Shown here one piece after another: positions 1-7,115 of a DNA stretch of 7,115 bases. The DNA is from a virus (Duplodnaviria; Heunggongvirae; Uroviricota; Caudoviricetes). The position numbers and the translations under genes are program-made. How positions within the stretch are numbered: the stretch's first letter is position 1; every line of letters starts with the position of its first letter. The stretch lies in the IMG/VR virus record IMGVR_UViG_2728369593_000018. One strand, given 5' to 3'. A model generated the notes under the pieces. It did no database searches. It was not told the origin of the DNA and saw only the letters and a program-made list of their open reading frames with translations.

Positions 1-2
1 TG

Positions 3-311
3 AATGAAATTAAAGAAATACCAGTAGTACGTGATGAATATGGCTGCTGGACGCATCCTGAATATGAAAAATTCTGTGACGGTCGGGAATATATTTCAAC
101 GGAAGAGTTTAACGCCTGGATGGAGGAAAATAATCTTCAATACGTCCTCTGCTTCAGAGATGAAGGATGTGCTGACCTTGATGCGTGTGATGCTGATATT
201 TCTGCATGGGAACCGGAACGACCAGAGGGCAATGGATGGTTTATTGGTTCAATACATGACACCGAAGATGGCCCGGTTTGTGTATGGCTGAGAAATAAGG
301 TCGAAGCATAA
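3..311 (+). CDS. C-terminal portion of a phage hypothetical protein (5' partial; frame is open to the window start)
   Basis: Frame 3 translates without a stop from position 3 to the TAA at 309-311 (...WTHPEYEKFCDGREYISTEEFNAWMEENN...ISAWEPERPEGNGWFIGSIHD...). The acidic, W-rich, protein-like composition favours this frame over the overlapping 31..291 ORF. Loose resemblance to small DUF551-type phage proteins is from memory only. Confidence 0.45.
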   Translation, partial: NEIKEIPVVRDEYGCWTHPEYEKFCDGREYISTEEFNAWMEENNLQYVLCFRDEGCADLDACDADISAWEPERPEGNGWFIGSIHDTEDGPVCVWLRNKVEA

Positions 312-443
312 AGGCTATAAACCGACTAACAACTAAATACTGAAGATTTAAATCAGAAACGATTTTTATTAAATCCTTAACCGGAGGGATTCCTGCACCC
401 TCAAATCATCAGGAGGCCGCCCGAAAGGGCGGTGGAGATAATA

Positions 444-644
444 ATGGGAATAACTAAAGAACGATTGTTGGAAATAGCAAACCTTAGTGATTGGGCATTA
501 AGTGATGAGAGAATTGTTTCTCCTCATGCTTATGAGTCAGTTACAAGTATAGAAATAACAACAATGGCTAGAATGCTGCTTGGTTATTTCAAAATAGAAA
601 ATAAAAACAGATGGATAGTAATGTTGATATATGTGAGATTTTAG
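444..644 (+). CDS. small hypothetical protein (66 aa)
   Basis: ATG at 444 preceded by GGAG at 435-438; the ORF overlaps the start of the downstream Q-like gene by 34 nt. AT-rich, no recognisable motif, and analogous in position to small ORFs upstream of Q in DLP12-type phages. Confidence 0.3.
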   Translation: MGITKERLLEIANLSDWALSDERIVSPHAYESVTSIEITTMARMLLGYFKIENKNRWIVMLIYVRF

Positions 645-964
645 ACGATTGGGGGGCTTGGGTTGTGGCTGGTAATAGTTCTATTGATTGGCAGGAAATA
701 GCTGATAAATATAAAAATGTTGTTCCTCATGGTAAAAAATCACGTCGTCAGTGCAGCAATGATGAAGGGCGAATTATTGACATTAGTATCCTTAGGTTAG
801 AAAGATATAAGCAACAAGAATATGAGTTAATTGTTGCTCATTTCGTGATTGGTTTATCTCTTCGTGCTATTGCAAAGCAACAAGGATGTTCAGATGGAAC
901 AATTCGTAAAAGATTGCAAAAAGCCTTAGGTTTTTTGACTGGATATATAGCAATTACCAGTTAA
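611..964 (+). CDS. Q-family late-gene antiterminator homologue (QuuD / DLP12-type small Q), 117 aa
   Basis: The translation shares the motifs I recall from E. coli QuuD (127 aa): WGAW near the N-terminus, SRRQCSNDE against SRPQCCDDD, and LIVAHFVIGLSLRAIAKQQGCSDGTIRKRLQKALG against [35 protein letters not shown]. The gene is AT-rich like the surrounding cassette. Confidence 0.6.
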   Translation: MDSNVDICEILDDWGAWVVAGNSSIDWQEIADKYKNVVPHGKKSRRQCSNDEGRIIDISILRLERYKQQEYELIVAHFVIGLSLRAIAKQQGCSDGTIRKRLQKALGFLTGYIAITS

Positions 965-1602
965 GAGTCAGCGGTTTTTTTACCAGTGTAATGGTATAAG
1001 GATACTCCCATGTGTCTTACATGATATGGAAGCGCTGTTGCTGGATGCTTTGTGATACTCTTAAAGCGGAGGGGAGAGCCTTCCGCTTCAATTTCTGCGT
1101 CCGAAACGGTCGTAGAGAAAAATTCTTTCCATTCATTGAATTTTACTGCTGATTTGTCAGACTTTATATAAATTAGAATTCCTCCATGATCGTCACGTGA
1201 CGTACCCGTGCCGTAACGTTCGGTTAGCTGAATCCAGCCATTATGAATAGATTTGGGGCCTCTCCATAATTTTGCTTCACCGATCCATTCGAATTTTCCG
1301 AATTGATGTTTAACTAATAAATCAACGTGACCGCCATGTTGAGTATCATGTTCAACATCATAAAACCTACCTTTCAGGAAATTTTTGATCGACGCTGTTA
1401 GCTCGTCCTCTCCCCACTTAGCATCTTGATAGAAGTGTTTGTCATTTTCTAAATTCTGAATAGCGTCGTCTAAATCTTCATAGAGTTGCTTTACAAAAAT
1501 ATTTTTGTCTGCAGCTAATTTTCTTTGAACCATTCCCCTAAATTCAGGATCCATTCTAATTAATGATTGAAGGTCTGCAGTACAGATGTTTACATCACTC
1601 AT
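961..1602 (-). CDS. hypothetical protein, 213 aa; candidate PD-(D/E)xK-fold nuclease
   Basis: Long ORF in AT-rich DNA. Start chosen at the internal ATG (complement of 1600-1602), which follows GGAGAG on the minus strand. Protein segment ...YDVEHDTQHGGHVDLLVKHQFGKFEWIGEAKLW... has a hydrophobic strand ending in D followed about 15 residues later by E-x-K, the classic restriction-endonuclease-fold arrangement. Its stop overlaps the stop of the convergent Q-like gene (TTAA at 961-964). Confidence 0.6.
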   Translation of the reverse strand: MSDVNICTADLQSLIRMDPEFRGMVQRKLAADKNIFVKQLYEDLDDAIQNLENDKHFYQDAKWGEDELTASIKNFLKGRFYDVEHDTQHGGHVDLLVKHQFGKFEWIGEAKLWRGPKSIHNGWIQLTERYGTGTSRDDHGGILIYIKSDKSAVKFNEWKEFFSTTVSDAEIEAEGSPLRFKSITKHPATALPYHVRHMGVSLYHYTGKKTADS

Positions 1603-1815
1603 GCAGACTCTCCAAAAGACTCGAAGGAGTAAAGTATGGATAAAGATACTGGCTAAAATTATCAACCAATTCGCCAGTTTCTGGATGGTAAAAACTTCCT
1701 AGTGTCTAAAGCATAGGAAATAAGATCATCTTCAACTGGTATTGGTTCTTCCGTTAAATTATCAATGTATTGAAAATGCATATCCAATAGATGTGCTTTA
1801 TAGCTAGATAAATAA

Positions 1816-2025
1816 TCAAGTTGCTTTTATTAGCAGGATATAGTCATCTTTCGTATCAGTTAGATAGGTTAAACCATTGATAAGGGTTTTGTATGTAAAG
1901 TGATTGATATTTTTAGCATCTTTACTAACCAGAAAAAGAAAAAGATCACGACACACACTGCGAACAGGATCATTAAAATCCTGCTCTATTTGCGTGATAA
2001 TGTCGTGATATATACTCTTTTTCAT
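1816..2025 (-). CDS. hypothetical small protein (69 aa), possibly a remnant of a decayed gene
   Basis: ORF on the same strand as the flanking cassette genes. Its ATG overlaps the TGA of an upstream 40-codon ORF in ATGA fashion, and the RBS is weak (AGG). No recognisable motif. Confidence 0.3.
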   Translation of the reverse strand: MKKSIYHDIITQIEQDFNDPVRSVCRDLFLFLVSKDAKNINHFTYKTLINGLTYLTDTKDDYILLIKAT

Positions 2026-2334
2026 TTATGGCCTGATGATCTCGCTCTTCTTTTCTCTTCACAGGACTTAACAGAATCCAATATTTTTTCAACAATAAAT
2101 ATAATCGAATCAATGTTGTTACAGTTCTTCGCTAATTGCTTCATGCAACCTAATTCTAGGATTATCAAGCATTGTCCTTTTTCCTGGTATATTAACTCTA
2201 CTGATAAAATATGTGAAGAACTTTGTGGTAAATCCCAAATTTTTCCAACTTAAACTTTGTCAATATTGGGCTTGCGGACTCTCCACTATGATGGTAAACA
2301 TCTTGACGCAAACACTTTTGACTTGGTTTGAGTT

Positions 2335-3111
2335 TTAAAGAACTTGTATTGCCATCTGAGGTGATAAAAGATACATGAGAAATTCTGCCATCACTTTTTC
2401 GTAAAGATCTTGTATTGAACCAAATAATTCAAGAGGATTGTTTAAAATAACGCCAGCTTCTTTTTTTATAAATTTAGCCACAAGGTATTGTTGAGGCTGT
2501 GATTCACTTCTTGGAAGGATAGATAAATCAATCGTAAGAATTAATATTTTTTCTGCAGGCATTAGCATGATGGTATTAAAGCATTGCGTGACTTGGCGTG
2601 TTTTGCATTTTATTTCTCCACCATTAGCACGTAATTCCATACCCACATCGCTAAGATGTGTTGGGTCAAGCTCTATCACTTCAGTGTAATACGCTTTGGA
2701 TAAAAAAACAGCAGTGTCAATTTGTTTATCACGAATGATATCTTGACATAGTTCAGCAAAATGCAGCTCAGTATCAGCAACTAACAGCTCCTCTCTGGAT
2801 AAAGGAATTGGGTATTTTTCTGAGAAGGGGCTATTGTCCTTTTTCTGATTTGTGAAAATTGTTTGTAATTTTGCTACGTCTTCATCGGTGATTCTATAAA
2901 TAGAAAGTAATCGATTCCCGCTAAAAATTAAACCTTTCCAGAAATCGTCGATTCTGTCTTTTAGGTCGGGATTATGCTGAACTACACTATTTACACGTTC
3001 AATAAAAAGGGGTAATCCTTGGGCCGTTACACCCAGTGATGAACCAAGAAGCTTACGGGTGTTGCGCCAGCCAAAGCGTGAATTGATGTTTTTTACTGTT
3101 TGCTCAAGCAT
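2335..3111 (-). CDS. hypothetical protein, 258 aa, no family recognised
   Basis: Long ORF in AT-rich DNA. ATG at complement of 3109-3111 is preceded by AAGGA with 7-nt spacing on the minus strand; the track's 3117 start is an in-frame GTG two codons upstream. Leading gene of the minus-strand cassette. Confidence 0.7.
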   Translation of the reverse strand: MLEQTVKNINSRFGWRNTRKLLGSSLGVTAQGLPLFIERVNSVVQHNPDLKDRIDDFWKGLIFSGNRLLSIYRITDEDVAKLQTIFTNQKKDNSPFSEKYPIPLSREELLVADTELHFAELCQDIIRDKQIDTAVFLSKAYYTEVIELDPTHLSDVGMELRANGGEIKCKTRQVTQCFNTIMLMPAEKILILTIDLSILPRSESQPQQYLVAKFIKKEAGVILNNPLELFGSIQDLYEKVMAEFLMYLLSPQMAIQVL

Positions 3112-3164
3112 TAACACTTCCTTAATTTTCCCTTAACAATTTAGGGTGCTAAACTTTTTTGCGC

Positions 3165-3193
3165 AGTTTACATAAAAAAATGTGCGTACGCAA
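3165..3193 (-). promoter_or_regulatory. candidate sigma70 promoter for the 258-aa gene, overlapped by a perfect 10-bp palindrome TGCGTACGCA (putative operator)
   Basis: On the minus strand: TTGCGT, 17-nt spacer, TAAACT, about 45 nt upstream of the ATG. The palindrome at 3183-3192 overlaps the -35 element and extends as an imperfect inverted repeat. Confidence 0.3.
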
Positions 3194-3252
3194 AAACTAT
3201 CTAACATGAATGAGCTTTAACCGGGAAATTTGTATATGTTGTGAGCATAAAG

Positions 3253-3282
3253 TTGGCTGAGAAATCTAAAAACGGGTAGAAT
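3253..3282 (+). promoter_or_regulatory. candidate sigma70 promoter for the hok transcript
   Basis: TTGGCT (3253-3258), 18-nt spacer, TAGAAT (3277-3282). This would give a leader of roughly 170 nt before the hok ATG, consistent with the long structured leaders of hok mRNAs. Confidence 0.3.
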
Positions 3283-3459
3283 GACTGCGGGTGCTTGAGG
3301 TCTATCTGTCTCAGGCATGAACACCAAAAGGCAGATAGAGAAAAGCCCCAGTTAACATTACGCGTCGGCAAGACGACTTAACATTAATCTGAGGCCATAT
3401 CTATGCTCTACACACGTAGGTTAGCCTCTTACGTGCCGAAAGGCAAGGAGAAGCAGGCT

Positions 3460-3615
3460 ATGAAGCAGCAAAAGGCGATGTTAATCGCCCTGATCGTCAT
3501 CTGTTTAACCGTCATAATGACGGCACTGGTAACGAGGAAAGACCTCTGCGAGGTACGAATCCGAACCGGCCAGACGGAGGTCGCTGTCTTCACAGCTTAC
3601 GAACCTGAGGAGTAA
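3460..3615 (+). CDS. hokD: Hok/Gef-family type I toxin (HokD/RelF-like), 51 aa
   Basis: Translation MKQQKAMLIALIVICLTVIMTALVTRKDLCEVRIRTGQTEVAVFTAYEPEE is essentially the K-12 HokD sequence as I recall it (one conservative difference). AGGAG lies 9 nt upstream of the ATG and a rho-independent terminator follows. Confidence 0.9.
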   Translation: MKQQKAMLIALIVICLTVIMTALVTRKDLCEVRIRTGQTEVAVFTAYEPEE

Positions 3616-3682
3616 GAGACCAGGCGGGGGAGAATCCCTCGCCACCTCTGATGTGTCAGGCATCCTCAACGCACCCGCACTT

Positions 3683-3709
3683 AACCCGCTTCGGCGGGTT
3701 TTGTTTTTT
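3683..3709 (+). terminator. rho-independent terminator downstream of hok
   Basis: Stem AACCCGC / GCGGGTT with TTCG loop, followed by TTTTGTTTTTT. Confidence 0.6.
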
Positions 3710-3781
3710 CCTGGCATTCTGGTTTACAATTCGCACGCCAGCCTGAACAACTGGCACCTGCTGTGCCAGCAGAGACAACCG

Positions 3782-4060
3782 ATGGCGCACGATACCAAAT
3801 TACACAATTCTGATGATTCTGCCGTCTTTGCCAGCAGGCACGGGCGGCGTTCCCGCACTTTCAAATCTGACTGGTTCCAGCATCCCCCATGCACTGAAGA
3901 ACAGGCCGAGTGGCTAATTCAGTGCTACCGCAGACACGGATACGAGATTAAGAAAGCCCTCAGCCTCGATTATCGTCACTGGATAATCTCCGTCAGGCTT
4001 CCTTACTCCGAACGACCACCGCGTCCGTCCCGCACATTCCAGCAACGCATCTGGAGGTAA
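3782..4060 (+). CDS. small hypothetical protein (92 aa) in the position of rem between hokD and ydfU in Qin
   Basis: ORF MAHDTKLHNSDDSAVFASRHGRRSRTF...; the upstream part of the track ORF (from 3653) overlaps the hok terminator, so the internal ATG at 3782 is preferred. Its stop overlaps the RBS and GTG start of the next gene. Assignment rests on synteny; the sequence itself is not recognised. Confidence 0.45.
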   Translation: MAHDTKLHNSDDSAVFASRHGRRSRTFKSDWFQHPPCTEEQAEWLIQCYRRHGYEIKKALSLDYRHWIISVRLPYSERPPRPSRTFQQRIWR

Positions 4061-4061
4061 C

Positions 4062-5111
4062 GTGCGGGTATTACTTCGACCTGTTCTGGTACCGGAACTC
4101 GGGCTGGTGATCGTTAAGCCGGGCCGTGAATCCATGCCGGTATTCCACAATACCCGGGTACTGGTGGAGCCGGAACCGAAAAGCATGCGTAATCTGCCGT
4201 CCGGGGTCGTTCCTGCCGTTCGCCAGCCGCTGGCGGAGGATAAATCATTACTGCCATTTTTCAGCGACGAACGAGTGATTCGTGCTGCTGGTGGCGCTGG
4301 CGCATTGTCTGACTGGTTACTGCGCCATGTTAAATCCTGCCAGTGGCCACACGGTGATTATCACCACAGTGAAACCGTCATTCACCGTTATGGTACCGGC
4401 GCAATGGTGTTGTGCTGGCACTGCGACAACCAGCTGCGCGACCAGACCTCCGAATCACTCGGGCAACTTGCTCACCAAAACCTGTCTGCATGGATGATTG
4501 ACGTCATACGCCATGCAATGAATGGCTCGCAGGAACGGGAATTATCGCTGGCTGAATTATCCTGGTGGGCGGTCCGCAATCAGGTGGCGGACGCGCTACC
4601 GGAAGCGGTATTACGTCGTTCGCTGGGGTTGCGTGCGGAAAAAATCCGCTCAATGTACCGTGAAAGCGACATCGTACCGGGAGAGCAGACCGCCACCAGC
4701 ATACTGAAACAGCGCACAAAAAATCTTGCGCCGCTGCCTCACGCCTACCAGCAACAGAACCCACCACAGGAAAAGACGGTGGTCAGCATTGCCGTTGATC
4801 CTGAGTCTCCGGAATCTTTCATGAAACGACCTAAACGTCGCCGCTGGGTTAACGAGAAATACACACGCTGGGTGAAGACACAGCCGTGTGCGTGTTGTGG
4901 TAAGCCAGCCGACGATCCCCATCACCTGATTGGTCATGGTCAGGGCGGAATGGGGACAAAATCTCACGATATTTTCACGCTACCGCTGTGTCGGGAGCAT
5001 CACAACGAGCTTCATGCGGATCCGCTGGCGTTCGAAGAAAAGCATGGTTCTCAGGTTGATTTAATTTTTCGTTTTCTTGATCACGCCTTTGCAACTGGCG
5101 TGCTTGGGTAA
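4062..5111 (+). CDS. ydfU: DUF968-type phage protein with C-terminal HNH-like Cys/His motif (YdfU-like, NinG position)
   Basis: 349-aa ORF; GTG start at 4062 with GGAGG 4 nt upstream. C-terminal CACCGKPADDPHHLIGHGQGGMGTKSHDIFTLPLCREHHNELH resembles the Cys/His nuclease motif of NinG/DUF968 proteins. Lies between the Rem-position ORF and rusA, as in lambdoid nin regions. Confidence 0.75.
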   Translation: MRVLLRPVLVPELGLVIVKPGRESMPVFHNTRVLVEPEPKSMRNLPSGVVPAVRQPLAEDKSLLPFFSDERVIRAAGGAGALSDWLLRHVKSCQWPHGDYHHSETVIHRYGTGAMVLCWHCDNQLRDQTSESLGQLAHQNLSAWMIDVIRHAMNGSQERELSLAELSWWAVRNQVADALPEAVLRRSLGLRAEKIRSMYRESDIVPGEQTATSILKQRTKNLAPLPHAYQQQNPPQEKTVVSIAVDPESPESFMKRPKRRRWVNEKYTRWVKTQPCACCGKPADDPHHLIGHGQGGMGTKSHDIFTLPLCREHHNELHADPLAFEEKHGSQVDLIFRFLDHAFATGVLG

Positions 5112-5123
5112 AAGAGGTGACTG

Positions 5124-5483
5124 ATGCTCATAGATTTGGTTTTACCTTACCCGCCGACGGTGAACACTTACTGGCGACGCCGTGGCAGCACATATTTTGT
5201 ATCAAAAGTCGGTGAGCGTTATCGCCGTGATGTGGCGCTTATTGTTCGCCAGCAGCAACTGAAATTAAACCTGTCCGGAAGGCCGGCAATAGAAATTATT
5301 GCAGAGCCACCGGATAAGCGCCGTCGTGACCTGGACAATATCCTGAAGGCACCACTGGATGTACTGACGCATGCGGGGCTGCTCATAGACGACGAGCAGT
5401 TTGATGAAATTAATATTGTGCGCGGTCAGCTTGTTCCTGGTGGGCGGTTGGGGATAAAAATCACAGAACTGGAGTATGCATGA
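5124..5483 (+). CDS. rusA: RusA-family Holliday junction resolvase
   Basis: 119-aa ORF with AGAGG RBS; LPYPPTVNTYWRRRG and PDKRRRDLDNILKAPLDVL match the RusA signature as recalled (PDRRRRDLDNLQKA in E. coli RusA). Its stop overlaps the next ATG (ATGA). Confidence 0.9.
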   Translation: MLIDLVLPYPPTVNTYWRRRGSTYFVSKVGERYRRDVALIVRQQQLKLNLSGRPAIEIIAEPPDKRRRDLDNILKAPLDVLTHAGLLIDDEQFDEINIVRGQLVPGGRLGIKITELEYA

Positions 5484-6169
5484 ATAACCAGTATTTACAG
5501 TTTGTTCGTGAGCAACTCATGATTGCCACCGCCGATTTGAGTGGATCAACAAAAGGGCAGCTTGAGGCCTGGCAGGAGAATGCCATGTTTGATACAGGGC
5601 GTTACAGGCGTAAAAAAATCCGGTACCGCGATGAAGTGACTGGAAAAATGATAACGCGGGATAATCCACCAATCCCGGGAAAGCAATCGCTGGCGAAGGG
5701 GGCGTCAATTCCTCTCGTCAGTCCGGTTGAGTTTTTGACATCATCGTGGCGGCGGGCTGTTCTGTCTCTTGAAGAACATCATAAAGCCTGGTTGTTGTGG
5801 TGTTACAGCGGGAGTATTTGTTGGGAATATCAGATCGCGATAACACAGTGGGCGTGGAATGAATTTAATACTCAATCCGGTACCAGAAAAATTGCTGGGA
5901 AAACGCAGGAACGCCTGAAAAAATTAATCTGGCTGGCGGCGCAGGCAGTAAAAGCAGAACTTTTTGGTGGGGAAGGTTATGAATATCAGGAGCTGGCATT
6001 ACTGGCGGGAGTGACAACTAAAAACTGGTCCAAAACATTTACTCGTCACTGGGTTGCAATGAAACACATTTTTCACCGACTGGATAGTGAGGCTTTATTA
6101 TTTGTAATGAGAACACGTTCAAAACAAAAGGCGGCATTTTCAAAGCAAAGTGTTGCAAAAGTAGATTGA
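5480..6169 (+). CDS. putative late-gene antiterminator Q (large, phage-82 / QuuQ-like type), 229 aa
   Basis: Position immediately after rusA and immediately before a promoter, short leader, terminator and tRNA cluster, as for Q in Stx phages and in Qin (ydfU then quuQ). GGAG lies 5 nt upstream of the ATG. The call rests on synteny and size; the sequence is not recognised from memory. Confidence 0.5.
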   Translation: MNNQYLQFVREQLMIATADLSGSTKGQLEAWQENAMFDTGRYRRKKIRYRDEVTGKMITRDNPPIPGKQSLAKGASIPLVSPVEFLTSSWRRAVLSLEEHHKAWLLWCYSGSICWEYQIAITQWAWNEFNTQSGTRKIAGKTQERLKKLIWLAAQAVKAELFGGEGYEYQELALLAGVTTKNWSKTFTRHWVAMKHIFHRLDSEALLFVMRTRSKQKAAFSKQSVAKVD

Positions 6170-6181
6170 AAGGCATATATT
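6153..6181 (+). promoter_or_regulatory. pR'-like late promoter
   Basis: TTGCAA (6153-6158), 17-nt spacer, TATATT (6176-6181), overlapping the 3' end of the Q-position gene and about 55 nt upstream of a strong intrinsic terminator, like the lambdoid pR'/tR' arrangement. Confidence 0.4.
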
Positions 6182-6234
6182 TCATGCAAATCTGATATTT
6201 TGCCGATTTTGTACGTGATGGCAAAATCAAACAA

Positions 6235-6260
6235 AACCCGCCCACAAGCGGGTTTTTTTG
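6235..6260 (+). terminator. tR'-like rho-independent terminator
   Basis: Stem AACCCGC / GCGGGTT with CCACAA loop followed by seven T residues. Confidence 0.6.
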
Positions 6261-6326
6261 TGCCACTTATCTCGGATAGACATGGTGAATGCGCTGGTGG
6301 AGGAGATAAGGGTGATTTTTGTATGC

Positions 6327-6356
6327 TTGCAACATTGATTTTCGTAACGTTATTAT
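6327..6356 (+). promoter_or_regulatory. candidate promoter for the tRNA cluster
   Basis: TTGCAA (6327-6332), 18-nt spacer, TATTAT (6351-6356), about 10 nt upstream of the first tRNA. Confidence 0.3.
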
Positions 6357-6366
6357 CCTGCGCCCG

Positions 6367-6441
6367 GCCCTTTAGCTCAGTGGTGAGAGCGAGCGACTCA
6401 TAATCGCCAGGTCGCTGGTTCAAATCCAGCAAGGGCCACCA
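6367..6441 (+). tRNA. ileZ: tRNA-Ile2-like (anticodon CAU; ileZ/ileX-type), with a 6-nt T-loop
   Basis: Perfect acceptor stem GGCCCTT / AAGGGCC, D-arm GCTC-AGTGGTGA-GAGC, anticodon loop CTCATAA, encoded CCA. Closely resembles E. coli ileX as recalled, except the T-loop reads TCAAAT (6 nt) where ileX has TTCAAGT. Confidence 0.8.
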
Positions 6442-6442
6442 A

Positions 6443-6518
6443 CCGCCACTAGCCATCAGGAAAGAGCGTCAACCCTTTAAGTTGAGTGTGCGAGGTTCGA
6501 GTCCCCGGTGGTGGTCCA
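6443..6518 (+). tRNA. tRNA-like sequence in the argN position; degenerate D-stem and unusual anticodon loop CCTTTAA (possible pseudo-tRNA)
   Basis: Acceptor stem CCGCCAC / GTGGTGG (one G-U), T-arm CGAGG-TTCGAGT-CCCCG (one mismatch), anticodon stem TCAAC / GTTGA, encoded CCA. The D-stem pairs only 2 of 4 positions and position 33 is C rather than the near-universal U; anticodon would read UUU. Confidence 0.45.
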
Positions 6519-6533
6519 TTATCGGTATTTCTG

Positions 6534-6607
6534 CGTTGTTAGCTCAGCAGGACAGAGCAATTGCCTTCTAAGCAATCGGTCACTGGTTCGACTCCAGTAC
6601 AACGCGC
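6534..6607 (+). tRNA. argO: tRNA-Arg (anticodon UCU; argO/argU-type)
   Basis: Perfect acceptor stem GCGTTGT / ACAACGC, D-arm GCTC-AGCAGGACA-GAGC, anticodon loop CTTCTAA, T-arm ACTGG-TTCGACT-CCAGT. The 3' CCA is not encoded. Confidence 0.85.
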
Positions 6608-6622
6608 TACACTTATTTTCCC

Positions 6623-6648
6623 GGCTCGCTTTTGCGGGCCTTTTTTTT
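6623..6648 (+). terminator. rho-independent terminator after the tRNA cluster
   Basis: Stem GGCTCGC / GCGGGCC (one G-U) with TTTT loop followed by eight T residues. Confidence 0.6.
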
Positions 6649-6736
6649 AAATGTCTCACAATTCAGACGGTTGACAGTTGTCTGTTTTGCGGGGAGTTTG
6701 TTAAAAGAAACTGGCATGGTGAATCCCCCTGTGCGG

Positions 6737-6755
6737 CTGTCTCTTATACACAAAT
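6737..6755 (+). repeat. IS50-like terminal inverted repeat (left end)
   Basis: CTGTCTCTTATACACAAAT compared with the 19-bp Tn5 end sequences; immediately followed by a 9-bp stem hairpin CAAATCCCC-ACCC-GGGGATTTG. Confidence 0.7.
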
Positions 6756-6901
6756 CCCCACCCGGGGATTTGTGATGTCTGTCAGTCTGCTTTAGGGGGA
6801 CTCTTTCCATCCGGTAGTTTCCTTCCTCCCCGGCAGCGATTTTTTGAACTTTTTCCTCACCCGTTGATCTTCTCTTATATTTCATTTTCTTCGGGTCTGT
6901 T

Positions 6902-7115
6902 ATGGTACTTTCTGATTGTTATTCATGGGCTAACGAGCAGTTTGGACATGCCCGTCTCGGTGATCCGCGTCGTACACGACGCCTTGTGTCACTGGCCTCT
7001 TCTCTCGCTCAGCATGCAGGTCTTTCTATTGTGAAATCATCCCAGTCCCTGCTCAGGTTGAAGGTGCGTACCGCCTGATACGTAACCCGTCTGTGTCCCC
7101 GCAAGCCATTGCCGA
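6902..7115 (+). pseudogene. IS50-like transposase N-terminal region with an apparent single-base frameshift (3' partial)
   Basis: Frame A gives MVLSDCYSWANEQFGHARLGDPRRTRRLVSLASSLAQHAGLSIVKSSQS, matching Tn5 Tnp ...DWAKSVFSSAALGDPRRTARLVNVAAQLAKYSGKSITISS..., then hits TGA at 7076-7078. The homology continues in another frame as PAQVEGAYRLIRNPSVSPQAIA, matching Tn5 ...EAMQEGAYRFIRNPNVSAEAI. The shift maps to the C-run near 7046-7050. Confidence 0.6.

Follow-up and report, generated by a model that had tools for sequence, protein, structure and literature searches.

A one-base deletion in an ISEc13 transposase at the end of a draft prophage contig is most probably a consensus error

Results

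A Lambdoid Prophage Region Ending in a Partial ISEc13 Element

The window, by which we mean the whole stretch of 7,115 nucleotides analyzed, is 100% identical over positions 1–7115 to contig AKYH01000108.1 of the draft assembly GCA_001605745.1 and, at 7115 bp, takes up that contig in full. The contig ends in an insertion sequence, and the rest represents the late-regulation region of a lambdoid prophage, 99.7% identical to that of Escherichia coli O127:H6 E2348/69. The prophage content comprises a Q-family gene, three minus-strand hypothetical genes, hok/sok, DUF968, RusA, Q, and three tRNAs (Table 1). Because the window is the whole contig, position 7115 is a contig end lying in a multicopy repeat, 67 nt away from the deletion described below.

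Two of the prophage features deserve a comment of their own. The hok/sok locus is a type I toxin–antitoxin system, recognized by its Rfam sok match and a Hok ORF. The tRNA-Lys found by ARAGORN between the tRNA with a CAU anticodon and tRNA-Arg scores below the Rfam gathering score and is missing from the RefSeq annotation of E2348/69; some phage records annotate such a gene.

Table 1. Positions of the features, private changes, and broken genes in the window
Feature	Position	Strand	Remarks
173-aa Q-family gene	444..964		broken by indels
142-aa gene	1595..2025		broken by indels
363-aa gene	2022..3111		broken by indels
hok/sok locus	3289..3465 and 3403..3615		Rfam sok match, 108.9 bits; Hok ORF
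tRNA-Lys (UUU anticodon)	6443..6518		ARAGORN
Target octamer CTGTGCGG beside the IS end	6729..6736	+	loop of GC-rich hairpin downstream of tRNA-Arg
Left 379 nt of ISEc13 copy, cut by the contig end	6737..7115	+	99.2–99.7% identity to annotated ISEc13 copies
Outside-end-type terminal inverted repeat CTGTCTCTTATACACAAAT	6737..6755	+	read from the sequence; present in every full ISEc13 copy examined
Truncated transposase ORF	6902..7078	+	58 aa: 49 native residues followed by 9 read out of frame, up to TGA
Missing A, first base of Thr50 codon ACT	7048..7049	+	alignment with two intact ISEc13 copies
Rest of transposase frame, A51 onward, AQVEGAYRLIRNPSVSPQAIA	7051..7115	+	one base back from frame 1, reached by a −1 shift
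Other one-base indels	at or after 602, 1701, 1818, 2133, 2188, 2244, 2392, 3181, 3209, 3268, 3301, 3365, 3376, 6339, 6528		multiple alignment
Private substitutions	2645, 2748, 3764, 4746		all GC to AT

On sequence identity, the element is assigned to ISEc13, an already known E. coli insertion sequence of the IS4 family and of the Tn5/IS50-like type. It shares with annotated ISEc13 copies the outside-end repeat, a 165-nt leader, and the start of the transposase, and in comparison with the copy at one related locus (L004) the segment shows zero mismatches and a single gap. The copy identical to it except for the missing A encodes an intact transposase of 457 aa, and full-size ISEc13 elements in the relatives measure 1550 bp. 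The reference annotation was the RefSeq name "IS4-like element ISEc13 family transposase" (e.g., WP_000244363.1). ISEc13 is common: there are about 30 places in E2348/69, and, according to the query coverage demanded, about a fifth to a half of the complete E. coli genomes contain matches. Full copies in the relatives show both ends of the element, whereas the window holds the left, outside-type end only, the right end lying beyond the contig end. The window copy thus differs from ISEc13 in three respects: it lacks one A, in codon 50, it has the left end only, and its orientation is opposite to that in E2348/69.

The preliminary description, made from the sequence alone, had called the element IS50-like, which was right in kind, and the homology to the Tn5 transposase on which it drew is real. 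The intact 457-aa relative aligns over residues 6–453 with PDB chains of the Tn5 transposase (1MUH, 1MUS, and 4DM0) with an E value of 7e-83, and the two proteins have in common the N-terminal DNA-binding domain, the DDE catalytic domain, and the Tn5 dimerization domain. In the intact relative, Tnp_DNA_bind and DDE_Tnp_1 pass their thresholds, while Dimer_Tnp_Tn5 scores 24.1 bits, just under the curated cut-off of 26.7. Around the lesion, ISEc13 reads vkssq.staqvegayrlirnp and Tn5 tissegskaaqegayrfirnp. The likeness extends to the DNA termini. The terminal repeats of both elements begin with CTGTCTCTT; the CTGTCTCTTATACACAAAT end of ISEc13 resembles the outside end of Tn5, CTGACTCTTATACACAAGT, and its inside end, CTGTCTCTTGATCAGATCT, is identical to the inside end of Tn5. 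Even so, ISEc13 is a separate element from IS50/Tn5, and the identity between their proteins is much lower.

The Transposase Frame Is Broken by Loss of an Isolated A

The ATG at 6902 opens the transposase reading in frame 1, which gives MVLSDCYSWANEQFGHARLGDPRRTRRLVSLASSLAQHAGLSIVKSSQS followed by LLRLKVRTA and terminates at TGA 7076–7078. The window codons in this frame are GTG AAA TCA TCC CAG TCC CTG CTC AGG TTG AAG GTG CGT ACC GCC TGA. Frame 3 carries the transposase homology onward to the end of the window, so that the first 71 transposase codons are covered, with an interruption at codon 50. The effect on the protein is visible in the match to the Pfam family Tnp_DNA_bind (PF14706): the truncated product covers profile positions 1–42 of 58 (E = 1.8e-13), and the repaired 71-aa reading covers positions 1–58 of 58 (E = 4.4e-21).

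The preliminary description had already noted the broken frame, where it stops, and that it takes one base to mend it, all of which the sequence confirms; the nature of the correction, however, had to be revised. The earlier proposal was to add one base to the C run, giving KSSQSPAQVEG with a proline. In the alignment with two intact ISEc13 copies, the intact sequence reads TCC ACT GCT (S49 T50 A51), i.e., CAGTCC-A-CTGCTC, against TCC CTG CT in the window, and the base to be restored between 7048 and 7049 is an A. With it, the peptide becomes KSSQSTAQVEG, with threonine rather than proline. As the ancestral context is CCAC, the CCC run at 7047–7049 was itself produced by the deletion, and there was no preexisting homopolymer.

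The Deleted Allele Is Unique to This Record

A 61-nt query centered on the deletion was run against complete E. coli genomes and plasmids. Matches were found at 1143 places across 901 complete genomes and at 109 across 91 plasmids, all of them with 98.4% identity, corresponding to one gap, the extra A; the deleted allele was thus found at 100% identity in none of the about 1,250 places. Comparison with other copies had been suggested earlier as a means of recognizing an error, and the other copies searched do have an extra base, which is A and not C, while those examined more closely have an intact ORF. An exact 38-mer carrying the deletion was found in no viral, metagenome, or GTDB genome contig, the 58-aa truncated product has no record among 153 billion gene positions, and the window-specific products occur in no Logan contig.

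A naturally decayed relative offers a comparison. Strain CFT073, of phylogroup B2, likewise holds an IS4/Tn5-type transposase gene that gives no full protein (C_RS05930 / C_RS05915). Unlike the window copy, this relic is about 97% identical, is split by an IS3 element as well as frameshifted, and is common to many genomes, where its equal degree of identity suggests that the ISEc13-like sequence is inherited. The lesion in the window consists of a single base, is unique, and lies within an error-rich contig.

One-Base Indels Exceed Substitutions across the Contig

To call changes private to the window, we used a multiple alignment with nine near-identical prophage loci that are mutually consistent at the positions concerned. 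Against these nine, 15 one-base indels are seen in the window, but private substitutions number only 4 (Table 1). The indel at 602 also occurs in a sister contig from this assembly and in a few further drafts, while the remaining 14 are unique to AKYH01000108.1. The inserted bases are A or T in every case, and 6 of the 16 indels, the one in the IS included, lie in a nonhomopolymer context as the IS deletion does. Within the first 6300 nt, the ratio of indels to substitutions is 13:4 for the private changes of the window, in comparison with 6:26 when all variation among these relatives is counted (Fisher P = 1.4e-4). In E. coli mutation-accumulation experiments, substitutions exceed indels several-fold, mismatch-repair mutants included, and the ratio in the window is therefore unlike that of real divergence.

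The density of indels is about 2 per kb; with 15 in 6736 nt, 0.84 would be expected in the 379-nt IS segment, and one is seen. Their distribution is uneven and clustered toward the contig ends, 13 falling in 602–3376, three in 6339–7048, and none in 3377–6338. The indel-free 3 kb correspond to the GC-richer DUF968–RusA–Q block, and under a uniform rate the Poisson probability of such a gap is about 0.002. Three genes are broken by the indels (Table 1). As a separate observation, the indels at 3301, 3365, and 3376 are inside the Rfam sok match, and those at 3181, 3209, and 3268 are just upstream of it.

The same assembly contains a second version of part of the window. Positions 4500–8174 of contig AKYH01000138.1 (8174 bp; locus L016 in our set) overlap window positions 1–3677 with 12 gaps and 2 mismatches. 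This sister contig is without 12 of the indels of the window, and the 213-, 142-, and 363-aa products are intact there. In closed O127:H6 genomes, window positions 1000–3400 have a single full-length occurrence. On this basis, contigs 108 and 138 would most simply be two renderings of one locus, the assembly apparently being redundant there. The sister contig has private indels and substitutions of its own further upstream, which indicates that the consensus quality is poor across the assembly. The other contigs with the allele at 602 (L015 and L018–L020, from Logan or draft genomes) were considered as representatives of the strain of the window and rejected, as each is several substitutions away from the sister contig.

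The Element Sits at the E2348/69 Target in Reversed Orientation

In E2348/69, ISEc13 is found at the identical 8-bp target with reversed orientation, the target-site duplication reading CCGCACAG on the other strand. The window has one junction only, and its flank ends in the octamer that is duplicated in E2348/69. All relatives with ISEc13 at this site (e.g., L002, positions 9233–10790) have the element in the orientation opposite to that in the window. The combination of flank and outside end was searched for as an exact 40-mer across the junction and was found in no viral, metagenome, or GTDB genome contig. In the INPHARED phages the tRNA region is present and the IS junction was not found, and a 90-aa ORF spanning the junction between flank and IS was found nowhere else among the sequences searched.

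A palindromic target permits either orientation at one place, which could account for the configuration in the window. The junction could represent a separate insertion event at a palindromic hot spot or, alternatively, a chimeric contig end. Inversion by recombination between IS copies was also considered and rejected by reasoning, as each flank keeps its IS end.

Discussion

We infer that the frameshift is most probably a consensus error, introduced by sequencing or assembly near the end of a low-quality draft contig. The IS segment itself is the left part of an ordinary ISEc13, an element moved by Tn5-like cut-and-paste with a 457-aa transposase translated from a single uninterrupted ORF, and the copy sits in the hairpin downstream of tRNA-Arg in the lambdoid prophage of an E2348/69-like E. 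coli. The A of codon 50 would have been lost in the record and not in the cell, so that the predicted product stops after 58 aa on paper. This reading is favored by the contig end only 67 nt off, the excess of private indels and their clustering toward the contig ends, the agreement of the single IS indel with the 0.84 expected, the cleaner sister contig, the uniqueness of the allele, and the otherwise complete identity of the IS segment to a copy with an intact transposase. The preliminary description had left the choice between a mutation and a homopolymer sequencing error; an error is the better supported of the two, but a homopolymer error in the C run is ruled out by the alignment, the lost base being an isolated A. 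The deletion of an isolated base differs, in turn, from the classic homopolymer error and is a counterpoint to this explanation.

A real private loss of 1 bp in codon 50, inactivating this copy of ISEc13, is an unlikely alternative. The deletion is present in the deposited sequence, and decayed ISEc13-like copies such as the IS3-interrupted and frameshifted one of CFT073 are natural. The private indels avoid the DUF968–RusA–Q block, a pattern that selection on real mutations could yield, although a bias in coverage or composition would account for the indel-free block as well. Against a real mutation stands the 15:4 ratio of indels to substitutions, which reverses the 6:26 of the relatives and is also the reverse of the known mutation spectra of E. 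coli. The same assembly moreover provides a cleaner duplicate of window positions 1–3677, the allele is unique in comparison with about 1,250 copies, and the contig end is close by. If the deletion were nevertheless real, the 58-aa fragment would comprise roughly three quarters of the N-terminal DNA-binding domain and would be without the DDE and dimerization domains. As one among the numerous ISEc13 copies of an EPEC-like strain, this copy would be an ordinary IS pseudogene incapable of self-mobilization. It would retain at least the left end and would move only with transposase supplied in trans; Tn5-type transposases are cis-acting, and supply in trans is inefficient.

Somewhat less probable still, and rather doubtful, is a chimeric join between the prophage flank and the left end of another ISEc13 copy, with the orientation and the deletion both deriving from a single bad read. 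The opposite orientation in every relative with ISEc13 at this site would fit such a join, as would the absence of the junction and of the spanning 90-aa ORF from the other sequences searched; the first 9 bases only are common to both IS ends, and the IS portion at the contig end, 379 nt, is about the length of one 454 or Ion Torrent read. However, the IS end abuts precisely the 8-bp target occupied in the relatives, which is what a true insertion in reverse orientation into a palindromic hairpin would give, and 9–13 nt of shared sequence would not suffice to mislead an assembler.

It is highly improbable that the deletion is real and that the 58-aa fragment, or an N-terminally truncated, Inh-like product arising by re-initiation at GTG 7093, damps transposition of the other ISEc13 copies of E2348/69-like EPEC in trans. 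This GTG is the nearest in-frame start past the premature stop, 15 nt on, and no ribosome-binding site is obvious for it. Where Tn5 has Met56, from which its inhibitor protein begins, ISEc13 reads Q52–V53 and lacks a methionine, so that an Inh-type protein made in the manner of Tn5 is not evident for ISEc13. A trans-inhibitory role of truncated ISEc13 products is speculative.

Programmed −1 ribosomal frameshifting or transcriptional slippage joining the two frames can be dismissed as having next to no probability: the window resembles the IS1 and IS3 families in having two overlapping frames that a −1 shift anywhere in 6964–7075 would in principle join into the transposase frame, but, unlike in them, the overlap (6964–7078) is free of X XXY YYZ heptamers and of homopolymer runs reaching 4 nt, all other copies searched (1143 and 109 places) have the extra A, the copies examined form a single 457-aa ORF, and the two-frame layout is conserved in not one other sequence. 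The earlier dismissal of programmed frameshifting is thus upheld.

Whichever explanation holds, the frameshift has little biological weight, ISEc13 being already known and broken IS copies commonplace. The finding does call for caution with the contig as a whole: the apparent pseudogenes in AKYH01000108.1, i.e., those of the Q-family antiterminator, the 142-aa and 363-aa products, and the ISEc13 transposase, are unverified.

The comparison of insertion sites yielded observations on ISEc13 that are independent of the frameshift. We rebuilt the empty sites for eight copies; the observation concerns the ISEc13 flanks of L001, L002, L021, L023, L024, L025, and L026 and window positions 6722–6736. 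Seven of the eight copies are placed in the loop of a GC-rich hairpin of the form CCCYC...GRGGG, with predicted energies of −9 to −21 kcal/mol, and the target duplications are 8 bp in five cases, 9 bp in one, and 11 bp in one. The pattern suggests that ISEc13 has a strong structural or sequence target preference. In the papers searched, we found no description of a hairpin target preference of ISEc13, which appears there only in passing mentions in lists. The stretch downstream of the prophage tRNA-Arg (window positions about 6690–6740) is a repeated landing site of insertion sequences: the E2348/69 group has ISEc13 there, L006 and L009 have the site empty, and among L005, L007, L008, and L010, compared near locus positions 11200–13900, the first three, all of them draft genomes, carry IS66-family elements. 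The ISEc13 copies are mostly located just downstream of genes, namely mog, ppiC, ygdQ, ybaY, and the prophage tRNA-Arg.
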